Shown: positions 28,901 to 40,900, counted from the stretch's first letter. The stretch is 64,000 nt of DNA from Macrostomum lignano (GCA_002269645.1 NIVC01000850.1:248001-312000), one strand, 5' to 3'. Notes: a model not told the origin generated them from the letters alone. Program-made: numbers and translations.

Positions 28901-31900
28901 CCTAGAAGGGATTCCAACAAAATCTAGACGAGGGTTGGACTAAGCCTTTGAACTCTTGGACTCGGGATAGCATGCAGTCTAAAAATAGAAAACCAGCGGG
29001 TTTCCCTTGCCCCTTATGCATCTTCTCTTACCCATGGCTATTTTTAGCTCTCACTCCACGACAAAATGTACATATAAGCTTGGCAGTGGCACCCCACATT
29101 AATCAATATTCTCTGCCACTACGTTAATGTACACTCTAGGCGCGTGGACTATAAAATCGACTCCCCTTTTTAGGCACGCACGAGCCGCACCCCAAAAAAT
29201 TCTCTGCCCTTCGTCACTGTACACACAATGTACAGCCTAAAGCATAAAGATCGACTACTCCCTTCCCTCTTATCCCCTACCCCCTTAACAATTTATTCGT
29301 GAAATTAAATGATTTTCTCTGCGTCTCTTGTTAATATAGACTCGACCCAGGAGGGGGGCTTCAGGAGGGCCGTTGCTCTGGCGCGGTGCTATCACGTGCC
29401 AGCGGCCCAGGCTTGATTCCAAGTGTAGTCACATTAATTTGAGGCTAAATTGGAATCTCGGCTTGGCTCTGCTCGTGCAATTAACGGCCTTAGGAGAGGA
29501 CCAACCCCCAGGCCCCAAGGCACAGTGAAGTGTACATGCCTAACGAACGATAGATAAAGTTAGGGCTGCTGTACACTCCTGTGTGAGTGTGTGCCTGTGC
29601 GCACACAGCCTCCCGTCGCTAATAAAAAAACAAAAAAGTACCTTCAGTTTTCATCATTAAGAACTCAATGTTATCAAATAACAACAGTAATTGTTTTGCA
29701 GTTTTAAATTAATCATTTTAATCGCGCGTCTGTTCCTACTTTTTATGTCTACGAGTTATATGCAGTTTTTAGTTTATTTAATCTCAAATTAAAATTTTTT
29801 GATAACCAATTTTAGGCGAAAGGAATAGAACCGGTGAGAAACATACAATATGATAGTTGATATTGTATAATTTTCCATATATATTTTCTTACTAGTGTAT
29901 ATTCTGTTCTATTGAAGTGTGTGTGCATTCGTATCTGCATCATCATCAACCCGAGATGTTGTTTAGAGTCCATTGTTGGATTCTTCACTGATGCTTCAAT
30001 GCACTTTTTATGAATGAGATCCCCTACTCTTCTCCAAAAACCTGAGAATGCTTGTATTTTGAGTTGAAACACTTATTTGGATTCAGTATGCTGCTTAGCA
30101 TCTTTGTCTGTAAGTTTGGATTTTTTGTTTCTGTTGCACAGAGTACTTATTTATCTATAAGCATTTATTACATTTATTTATTTAACAATTGATCTCTTCT
30201 GCTTATAGAAGCTTGCTTTATTCGCTATTGAATATATTCTTTTAATCCTTACAATCTATCATCTATCTTATAGGCAGTTGGCCTCTTAACTTAATAAAGT
30301 TGCTTCTGTTAGTATAAAATTTTATGGTCTATCTAATGTATTGACATTTTCTGTCTATGTATGTCTGTCTGTCTGTCTGTCTGTCTGTCTGTCTGTGTTA
30401 GTGTATGTGTGTTTGCGTAGACTCTCCGTCGGTTTAAAAGCCTCGTTAGCGGGACCTTTCGATTACATGGACCCTTTAAGTGGACCACTTTAAATTTCCT
30501 TGATGGGAAGTACAGAGAGGGTTTATCTTGACTGACTGCATAGTCTGAAAGGCAGCCATTACTGTGGCCAAAGTCCCTCTACTTAAAGTAGTTTAGATTT
30601 TAAGTATTGAGTATTTTAGTTTACAAGGACCTTTAACACAGTCCACCCAAACCACATCGCTGAGGTCCACCTAACCCGAAAACAGACAAATTTCACACAT
30701 ACATAGTGTATGTTTTGTTTGTATGAAAACTTATTTTTTTATGATATAGCTCTTTAAAATGCGTGTTTAAGCACATTGGGGCATTTTTGAGTTGCAGAAG
30801 CAAGCTTTCTAAACAGGCCGAAGTGATTGGAATGTAAAATAAAATTGAAGTTTCTGCTACAAACGAAGCTCCGATGTAGCCCATAATAACTAAAAATTCA
30901 CGAGATGGTTTTATTTATTACTTGTGGTTTCTGAAACAAAACTGTTCACTAATATTCCTGTCGCTATCATGCTTGGAATAAATGCTTCATCAAGTGTTGA
31001 TTTTAGAGAACCTAGATTGAAGGCTATGCATGCTATGCATTTCTCATGCTGCATTTGCAGCATTGCTTAATTTAAGGAGACATAAAGACAAGAGCCTTGC
31101 TTACAGCACGGACTCCTAAAATAGTTTGTGTGCTTTATATTCAAACGTTTACAGCTTCGGCAACCGATAGGATAGGGCTGAATAATGAAACTTTAAAAGC
31201 CGAACCATCCTGACTGAGGTCCAAGCAAACCCCAAAGCTCATCAGCCAATCCTGTGCTTAAACGGACAGTCAAGAATGGGGTGGTTTAACTTTCATTCCT
31301 TACTGTCCGTCCGTTTGAACGTTGGTCATTTCCCTCTCTCCCTCCGAAGGGCTCTTATTGGTCTGTAGCTGGCTTAATCATCAAGGTCGAGGGTCTGAAA
31401 TAGAGGGTCAACGTAAACATCTTCCTAATCACAAAAACAGACCAATTTCCAACCTCAAACAAGACTTCAACTTGAATTAGTTGGCCTCACAAGTTGGTTC
31501 TGCCAACTGGTTGTCCTTAACACGCCAGCATGCAGAAAAAAAAGCCCCAAGCTAGTAGGCGTTTCTACGTTGAAAGGATTATCAAGTGCACGAAAAAGAA
31601 GCTCTACATAAAGTGGAAAGGATATTCTAGGTGAGTTTCAAAAGATTTATTCATCACTGCACTCTATTTATTATATATACTAAGAGTTGTTTCCATACGG
31701 CCATATCGGTTCGGCTAATAAACAGTGCTTCCATATTTTAGCAATCAAAATTCTTGGGAGCCACGAAGCAACATACCAACAAGTGTGATTCAAAGTCTGC
31801 ATTCATCTTGCGGTAAGAATTTTTAGTTATCACGTGTAATAATCTTATTAAATAATTGACCGTCTAACTTCTGTGTCAGAAAAAAATGACAATCTAACTC

Positions 31901-37900: not shown

Positions 37901-40900
37901 GACCGAAAACTGAAGCAGGTGCATGTCAAGTGGTCAGAAGAGGAAGACGCAGCGTTCAAACGTGTTTTCGACAGAATGCTTGAAGAATCAGGTGGAAAAG
38001 TTCCTGGGTTAAATGCGCTGCTTAGGCTGAAGCAAGATGAGCCAGCCCTGAAAGATCGATCTGTTCTGAAGCTTAAAAGCAAGTTTTTTAACGAAATGCA
38101 GAAACTTAAGAAATAGCTGGTTACGAGTATGCTTAAGTCTCCAACCTATAATGGTGCTCTTTCCTTGCTGCACTGAACTCACGTTTTGTTCAATGATACA
38201 TGTATTTTCTCTAACCTTATAATTAGTGGCTGAGATTGATTAAATATTATGTCACTTCGATAGCGAAAGCAACTTTAGATTTGCAAGACACAAAGTAGCT
38301 TGCCATAAAAATTTCTGTGCCAAAATATCCGAATTTTTTTTAATCTCTCTCCAAAATTTGATGAATACATTCATTCATCATTATAAATTCATTCAAATTT
38401 TAGCCTACCGAAGTGACATGGAGGCAGTTAGCCCCGAAAATTTTCCTATTATTCAGTTGTCGCGGTATACCGCACTATTTTCACAATTGATTTGTAACGC
38501 TTCTCCCACGTTTCTATAAACTGTGAATTTAAACTATAAATGCATCTAAAAACTTTGGCTTGGGCTGGCTTGTTGAATGTCAAAACTGCAGTATTTTTTG
38601 CACTGCACGTCTAAAAAATCGAAAAACTTCCAATTATTCTCTCTTGTTTAAGTTTTGCTTTGCAGTTTAGTAATTTTTGTCAAATTTAGCATTTTACCAC
38701 CTTTATGTCATCATATTTGATGAGTGTTAATCATTTATAGTTATAGCTCGTAGCTCGTATGATCCAAATGTATTTGCGGTACCTTTACAATAATTACTCA
38801 CTCAGTCCTACATCGCTAAATTTTTTAAACAAATAATACAAATAAAAATTTTAACATCGCTTTCATGCTTTACAGGAAAACTTGAACAGCAGTTCAGAAC
38901 AATAACTATCGACTGTTAAAAATCTTTGTTGCTCTAGATTTTTATATTGGTCCACGTACACCATCATGTTCTTAAAGGTCCGTTTAAACCTGGTCTACCT
39001 AACAACATAGTTCGAATAGTTTAATTTACTCGAATTGAAGACCTTTTGAAATTAAAAAGGCAACAGTATTTTCCAAGCGTCTCAAATTAAGCTAGTTCCC
39101 CGATTTTCTAACCATAACTAATTGGTCCACCTAACGCATTGTCAGAACAACGGTCTATGTAACCACACATACACTAGTATGTCTGTCTGTCTGTCTGTCT
39201 GTCTGTCTCTTCTCTATGTCTGTCTGTCTGTCTATCTGTCTGTCTGTCTGTCTGTCTGTCTGTCTGTCTGTCTGTCTGTCTGTCTGTCTGTCTGTCTGTC
39301 TGTCTGTCTGTCTGTCTGTCTGTCTGTCTGTCTGTCTGTCTGTCTGTCTGTCTGTCTGTCTGTGTCTGTCTGTCTGTCTGTCTGTCTGTCTGTCTGTCTG
39401 TCTCTGTCTGTGTCTGTCTGTCTGTGTCTGTCTGTCTGTCTGTCTGTGTCTGTCTGTCTGTCTGTCTGTGTCTGTCTGTCTGTCTGTCTGTTTGTTTGTT
39501 TGTCTGTATGTTTGTCTGTCTGTTCTGGTGTGTGCCTGTGTCTGTGTGGTGTCTAGTGTCAACTAGTAAACAGGCAAACTAGTAAATTGCATATAAGCTT
39601 AATGATTTCGCTTTCCTACTGCCTATCGAATAGACCGAGGCACAAATCCCAAACCATTGTACCGCCTCGCACAACAGTGCTTTGCTTGTTTTATGCAATC
39701 GACTTTGCATTTGTACTGCGCACATTCTCTGCTTATTTTAACTCAAACGCAGGGTCTGAGTTGCAGCTCCGGATAGGTAACCCATTTTATCACCGTACTG
39801 AAGCTATGATTAATTTAATAGACGAAGGAACATTGATGTTAATACATGAATTCACTGCTATGTTTAAGGCTCGTGTGTTATTATATATCTTATTCCTTTG
39901 CTAAGCTACTGTCAACATAAATTTACTAAAGATTTATCAAGAAATTGTACTCTGATAATTGCCATTTCAATTATTGTCAATAATTAATTTATTTTGGCGG
40001 CTTCCTTTGATGTCCTCACAATTACCTCGGCAGCTTCCTTTGATGTCCTCACAATTACCTCGGCGGCTTCCTTTGATGTCCTCACAATTACCTCGGCAGC
40101 TTCCTTTGATGTCCTCACAATTAATTTGGCGGCTTCCTTTGATGTCCTCACAATTACTTTGGCGGCTTCCTTTGATGTCCTCATAATTACCTCGGCAGCT
40201 TCCTTTGATGTCCTCACAATTACTTTGGCGGCTTCCTTTGATGTTCTCACAATTACCTCGGCAGCTTCATTTGATGTCCTCACAATTTACCTCGGCAGCT
40301 TCCTTTGATGTCCTCACAATTACCTCGGCGGCTTCCTTTGATGTCCTCACAATTACCTCGGGGGCTTCCTTTGATGTCCTCACAATTACCTCGGCGGCTT
40401 CTTTTGATGTCCTCACAATTACTTTGGCGGCTTCCTTTGATGTCCTCACAATTAATTTGGCGGCTTCCTTTGATGTCCTCACAATTACTTTGGCGGCTTC
40501 CTTTGATGTCCTCACAATTACTTTGGCGGCTTCCTTTGATGTTCTCACAATTACCTCGGCAGCTTCATTTGATGTCCTCACAATTTACCTCGGCAGCTTC
40601 CTTTGATGTCCTCACAATTACCTCGGCGGCTTCCTTTGATGTCCTCACAATTACCTCGGGGGCTTCCTTTGATGTCCTCACAATTACCTCGGCGGCTTCT
40701 TTTGATGTCCTCACAATTACTTTGGCGGCTTCCTTTGATGTCCTCACAATTACTTTGGCGGCTTCCTTTGATGTCCTCACAATTAGTGGTATCTCGGCAG
40801 CTTCCTTTGATGTTCTCATGATTAAATTTGCGACTTCTTTTGATGTTCTCAAAATCATACTGGCATGGCGGCTTCCTTTGATGTTCACAGCTTGTGTGGT

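Follow-up and report, generated by a model that had tools for sequence, protein, structure and literature searches.

A probable CryptonV-like tyrosine recombinase element in the (TCTG)n microsatellites of Macrostomum lignano and its predicted recombination site

The stretch of the Macrostomum lignano genome analysed here (NIVC01000850.1:248001-312000, 64 kb, referred to as the window) carries an element of about 8.8 kb set into a (TCTG)n microsatellite, which raises the question of how a transposon selects so plain a repeat and whether the likeness of its ends to that repeat takes part in the choice. According to the original prediction, a tyrosine recombinase joins the element to TAGT-interrupted (TCTG)n arrays through a TA or TAGT core. 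The comparison of copies with empty alleles leads to a different answer. With moderate confidence, we regard the element as a CryptonV-like DNA transposon with a recombinase-fold protein, which inserts in uninterrupted (TCTG)n by way of a circle bearing a 13+8+13 site and recombines within TGT.

Borders, copies and target sites

A search of the 764-Mb M. lignano assembly gave 19 matches to the left end, nine of them full length at an identity of at least 97%, and nine matches to the right end, which lie on the same nine contigs as the full-length left ends. The ten weaker left-end matches belong to older subfamilies from three sites and were left out of the copy count; two of these sites resemble the left junction of the present element (family A) with variants, and one is 2 bp shorter. 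All nine two-ended copies sit in (TCTG)n in a single phase and a single orientation. Each of their 470-bp left flanks matches itself alone, indicating unrelated insertion sites. The association with the microsatellite is far beyond chance, and the strict targeting and constant junctions expected by the original prediction hold across all nine copies.

The left flank of the window copy was also found on two other contigs (L127 and L129), both of which are empty alleles whose TCTG arrays contain neither TAGT nor TTAG. In these alleles, the left part of the host array (30358-30393, forward strand), which is the target, runs on into the right part (39183-39523, forward strand). The empty-allele test covered three of the nine family A loci, and at all three the five alleles recovered (L127, L129, L132, L175 and L176) lack the proposed interruption, with one ordinary TTAG variant present in L176. 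L131 and L133 were excluded as uninformative: in the former, the array gives way to other sequence and the 442 bp separating the anchors include one TAGT, and the latter runs into a contig end. The TAGT-interrupted empty site predicted from removal of the element has no match in the 764 Mb, while a like search run as a control recovered eight of the nine right junctions. Within 600 bp of the nine insertions there are ten natural TCT-TAGT-GTC interruptions, all of them unused; a second family described below inserts in the same arrays and has no TA or TAGT direct repeat at all. The target is uninterrupted (TCTG)n in fixed phase and orientation, and neither the idea that interrupted arrays are natural attB sites nor the claim that removing the element restores such a site survives these comparisons. 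Two further TCTG arrays in the window, at 46332 and 59854, are without a family A arm.

The bases GT at the left end (30397-30398, forward strand) and GTA at the right end (39177-39179, forward strand) are invariant in all nine copies and missing from the empty alleles; this assigns them to the element, whose span is 30397-39179 and not 30353-39200 as first placed. Both junction strings quoted in the original prediction are present, and TA (30399-30400 and 39175-39176) and TAGT (30399-30402 and 39175-39178) are indeed repeated at the two junctions. Since the empty alleles carry no interruption and the interrupted site is absent genome-wide, both motifs lie inside the element, and neither is supported as the crossover core.

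At copy C230 (L008, L027), the TCTG array lies between what appear to be two exons of a host gene, a position that fits repeat targeting as a safe harbour. The ends of the copy at C1364 (165187-203598) are 38 kb apart, compared with 5.8-15.9 kb in other copies, and may represent a nested insertion or two elements.

The predicted joined-end site and the likeness of its arms to the target

The element is bounded by two 13-bp arms (30399-30411, forward strand, and 39164-39176, reverse strand), which form a perfect inverted repeat; imperfect pairing continues to about 24 bp, reaching about 30422 on the left. The eight bases preceding the left arm are GTCTGTGT in eight of the nine copies and CTCTGTGT in one, and the eight bases following the right arm are GTATGTCT in eight and GTATATCT in one. 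Only TGT is common to the two junctions: the host stops at TGT on the left (30394-30396, forward strand, TGT in 9/9) and restarts with TGT on the right (39180-39182, forward strand, TGT in 8/9 and TAT in 1/9). If recombination is conservative, the joined ends would hold this putative core once, giving two 13-bp arms around an 8-bp spacer, in which GTA takes positions 1-3 and GT positions 7-8. The 13+8+13 site predicted in this way from the two ends would be loxP-shaped with an asymmetric spacer, and the usual recombinase substrate is described as two 11-13 bp arms with a 6-8 bp spacer (PMC3212892). The TA-centred palindrome proposed as the circle junction is not supported.

The spacer predicted for the element reads GTA-TGT-GT and that of the target GTC-TGT-CT, with mismatches at positions 3 and 7. 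All left junctions have the host base at position 3 and the element base at position 7, and all right junctions have the reverse; positions 3 and 7 thus come from opposite partners in each insertion, which places the net exchange within TGT. Two loci, C4340 in family A and C5096 in family C (assuming an 8-bp spacer there), have apparent host variants inside the core, and these two indicate the exact centre of the spacer. Host variants also reach the core edge, at spacer position 1 in C503 and at positions 1-3 in the family B copy C1677. A 7-bp core was considered and is disfavoured, as the variants of C503 and C1677 would fall inside it.

With an 8-bp spacer, agreement between the family A arm and the host half-sites is 8/13 positions on the right and 1/13 on the left, and random 13-mers score 8 in 0.5% of cases at fixed phase and in 4% at the best phase. 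In the original prediction the arms resemble the target microsatellite, which holds beyond chance for one host half-site and fails for the other and for the family C arms; the resemblance also lies in a different register from the one proposed. The host half-site quoted earlier as close to the arm starts with three element bases, and its match to the arm is 6/9.

Two further young families were found in the same genome. Family B (59% identical, eight copies, seven left and seven right junctions seen) also targets (TCTG)n, and its arms match the half-sites at 10/13 and 0/13. Family C (34%, seven copies, five left and seven right junctions seen) lies in (TG)n in 7/7 copies at six independent sites, even though run starts of (TG)n number 1,294 in the genome against 20,266 for TCTG, i.e., 16 times fewer. 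Family C fits arm+3+TGT+2+arm, again mismatched to its target at positions 3 and 7, and its single empty allele has plain (TG)n at the site. The family C arms match their target at only 5/13, so likeness is not required across the group. Arm likeness is real, one-sided and not universal, and it likely helps the two TCTG families to find their target without being a general rule. A supposed avoidance of (TG)n by family A was dropped, as nine of nine copies in TCTG would arise with P of about 0.57 if both repeats were used alike. In the family C copy C1750 (L084, about 4415-4445), a second stretch resembling an arm end occurs in the right flank, 16 bp past the junction.

All nine copies of family A also contain an internal palindrome (30694-30716, no strand assigned) in which two arms overlap at TA and which is one base shorter than two complete arms, and family B likewise has an arm-like or target-like site about 300 bp inside its left end (L113, about 314-346 bp); these sites are perhaps operators or fusion relics. 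GGTCC/GGACC-type repeats with seven loose matches lie next to the left arm (30419-30677), and GGTCC-type repeats with five loose matches next to the right arm (38949-39163), both without strand assignment; the left set is predicted to provide accessory binding sites.

Coding regions and the recombinase

The only long frames in the element are the recombinase exon (35955-38116, forward strand) and copies of the exon upstream of it. The recombinase exon contains R (36929), K (37076), TxxR (37283-37294), H (37370) and Y (37397). Fifty-five homologs of its protein were found, the named ones mostly animal; the closest named homolog is a flatworm protein (55%), which is 96% identical to family B, and a zebrafish homolog carries a SET domain. 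In an alignment of the query with 52 homologs (53 rows), the catalytic residues are present as R in 48, K in 52, R in 53, H in 52 and Y in 51 rows, with the first His replaced by Thr in 51. The order of motifs agrees with the R-K-HxxR-H/W-Y set, and the residue roles are putatively assigned accordingly. The structure model (pLDDT 89) predicts that the protein has a tyrosine recombinase fold, its best Protein Data Bank (PDB) matches being XerH, Cre, XerA and the Tn1549 and lambda integrases, with viral integrases also matched; no recombinase was retrieved when solved structures were searched by sequence. In motif order and fold matches, the identification as a tyrosine recombinase element stands. 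No frame for a reverse transcriptase or RNase H occurs within the element, which separates it from DIRS and Ngaro elements, and the lack of a DDE transposase frame, together with an empty site without TA, separates it from Tc1/mariner and EnSpm.

The exon upstream of the recombinase exon (34864-35656, forward strand) encodes an acidic region and a CxxC...H...C-H zinc-finger-like motif. The interval 35657-35954 (GT..AG) is skipped in one contig of run X11, whose RNA nature is a guess since none of the listed runs is recorded as RNA, and this putative splice gives an open frame of 984 residues from 34864. The upstream coding block occurs in three near-identical copies (32449-33099, 33761-34387 and 34825-35670), interleaved with three arrays of 83-85-bp tandem repeats (32077-34817, forward strand). 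Each of the 83-85-bp units holds the GGTCCA..TAAC motif of the subterminal repeats, with 17 exact copies of one form, and judging from this motif the array could be a set of recombinase-binding sites. A possible 5' exon with a weak chromodomain-like stretch (31521-31630, forward strand) matches Pfam Chromo at an E-value of 0.36, under the cut-off, and two short putative exons in 31521-31790 translate to a chromodomain-like peptide. The recombinase frame is intact in three of the nine copies, and six share a common internal deletion.

Outside the element, the window has dense and varied minisatellites with 14-60-bp units every 1-2 kb (1149-29000 and 40000-64000). Among metagenome contigs, 194 pattern matches were obtained, of which none was confirmed.

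Proposed mechanism, rival explanations and related systems

The data show the borders, target, phase, arms and fold; a circular intermediate, its cut sites, TGT as the crossover region and the way in which the target is recognized are inferred. The element would excise as a circle whose joined ends form the 13+8+13 site; this site would pair with the repeat, and strands would be exchanged at TGT. The arm contains a periodic TGTn motif that keeps phase with just one of the two host half-sites, and a single recombinase monomer may take this half-site for an arm, thereby setting phase and orientation. Binding to the opposite half-site would not depend on likeness of sequence and would probably draw on help from the subterminal repeats and N-terminal domains. 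More tentatively, and with considerable doubt, this may amount to a one-sided att system, in which the element mimics only one half-site and both strands are exchanged within at most 3 bp in the middle of the 8-bp spacer, with positions 3 and 7 as fixed mismatches. If true, its chemistry or resolution path would be unlike that of the Cre, lambda and Tn916 integrases, and the element would be directed to a different repeat by exchanging its arm and spacer.

Several observations weigh against recombination of a circle within TGT. A circle or tandem junction of the ends has no match in the assembly. Arrays differ widely between haplotypes, with alignment scores split 1:1 at C230, and array lengths are too variable for units to be counted, so that a 3-bp shared core and the loss of one target base are indistinguishable by length. 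Classical recombinases exchange strands over a longer window than the 3 bp or less implied here. With TGT as the core, four additional bases at the right end of family B would lengthen its centre to 12 bp, and the spacer of family C could be 6, 8 or 10 bp because its target is a dinucleotide. The poor fit of the family C arms belongs here too, as does the family A arm, which fits (TG)n better (10/13) than its own target. As to the protein, fold E-values are modest (best 1e-3), the recombinase exon product has no Pfam match, and PF00589 is found in only 2 of the 53 aligned members.

The main rival is that accessory domains choose the target: the same element would enter the same plain repeat because chromatin or a distinct protein domain selects it, with arm likeness as a by-product such as relics of captured target. 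We consider this possible, though on the unlikely side. The rarity of the (TG)n runs that family C nevertheless uses in every copy, the match of one host half-site at only 0-1/13, and the zinc-finger-like and possibly chromodomain-like parts of the protein all fit such a division of labour; it leaves unaccounted for the A and B arms, which are exactly in phase with the target across the spacer, and the internal sites that both families carry about 300 bp from the left end. Another explanation dispenses with a shared core, the ends joining with a 5-bp centre and the insertion replacing one target base in a non-conservative reaction. The periodic target permits this reading, the empty allele L129 is longer than the shared-core model by one unit and 2 bp, and copy C4340 has TGT on the left and TAT on the right. 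However, L129 also has a 2-bp indel, which means that slippage occurred, and C4340 is explained if the crossover fell inside the core where the host had a TATC variant; a variant of this kind is present in the empty allele L132, though at a different unit distance. Tyrosine recombination is, moreover, conservative, and we regard the loss of a base as improbable.

Two remaining explanations appear less credible still. A TA or TAGT core in naturally interrupted arrays would account for the repeat at both junctions and for the near copy of the TA-centred palindrome at 30694-30716, which recombination within TGT leaves unexplained; it is refuted by the uninterrupted empty alleles and the genome-wide absence of the interrupted site, and further opposed by the unused natural interruptions and by family B, so that we give it almost no credence. 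An equally faint prospect is a DDE element that moves by cut and paste, duplicates a target TA (as Tc1/mariner elements do) or 3 bp (as CACTA elements do) and carries the recombinase as cargo. The terminal inverted repeats, the letters CACTA in the arm and a TGT readable as a 3-bp duplication lend themselves to it, but CACTA points the wrong way for EnSpm termini, the frames and the empty site show neither a transposase nor TA, and each of three recombinase lineages in the genome comes with ends and a repeat target of its own.

The value of this locus lies in the material that the genome offers. Microsatellite targeting by recombinase transposons and by nimaviruses has already been reported, in accounts that leave boundaries and mechanism open. 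Here, a single genome contains three young families with genes that are intact, copies that are nearly identical and alleles that are empty, so that donor and target sites are exactly defined and the mechanism can be tested. A recombinase that places 6-16 kb into abundant plain repeats in fixed orientation could serve as a tool.

Among known systems, loxP has the 13+8+13 layout predicted here, and Cre needs matching spacers. Cre and the Tn1549/Tn916 integrase are fold matches of the present protein. Tn1549 bypasses homology and tolerates spacer mismatch as the present element appears to do, while its crossover regions vary over 5-7 bp and the spacer here is constant with net exchange in the central 3 bp (PMC5871717). 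Starships resemble the element in having a recombinase, short direct repeats and asymmetric terminal inverted repeats (PMC12257634, PMC13465315), and DUF3435 clusters appeared as leads at 0.88 in the Atlas search; as described, they are fungal, giant, cargo-bearing and not microsatellite-specific, and they encode a different protein family.

Endogenous nimavirus recombinases, reported to insert strictly in the telomere repeat (TAACC)n (PMC10871703, PMC7016691), are likewise tyrosine recombinases with a C2H2 finger and a simple-repeat target. Nimaviruses are, however, viral genomes of 280-580 kb, with the boundary of Nimav-1_LVa given as undetermined, whereas the present element has no viral genes; no labelled nimavirus protein occurs among the 55 homologs or the 50 fold matches listed.

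Crypton elements come closest. CryptonF circles and excision have been described (PMC3212892, PMC9977147, PMC13465315), including clean excision of CryptonF-1_cRei (PMC9977147). CryptonF and CryptonS resemble the present element in encoding only a recombinase and sharing a short motif with the target, but they are described as lacking terminal inverted repeats and as having direct repeats of 4-6 bp (PMC3212892), unlike the perfect 13-bp arm pair and the 3 bp or less common with the target found here. For the CryptonV group (listed in PMC5753468), no att-site anatomy was found among the papers listed in searches of the open literature, and Repbase Reports, subscription journals or supplements may hold it. 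The likeness to CryptonV is one of mode of action and description, the 55 homologs carrying no CryptonV label. CryptonV families have been reported to insert in microsatellites (PMC8869645, for Kapitonov and Jurka 2012, Repbase Reports), and what they have in common with the element of M. lignano is an animal DNA transposon with a tyrosine recombinase, no reverse transcriptase and, in some families, microsatellite-specific insertion.

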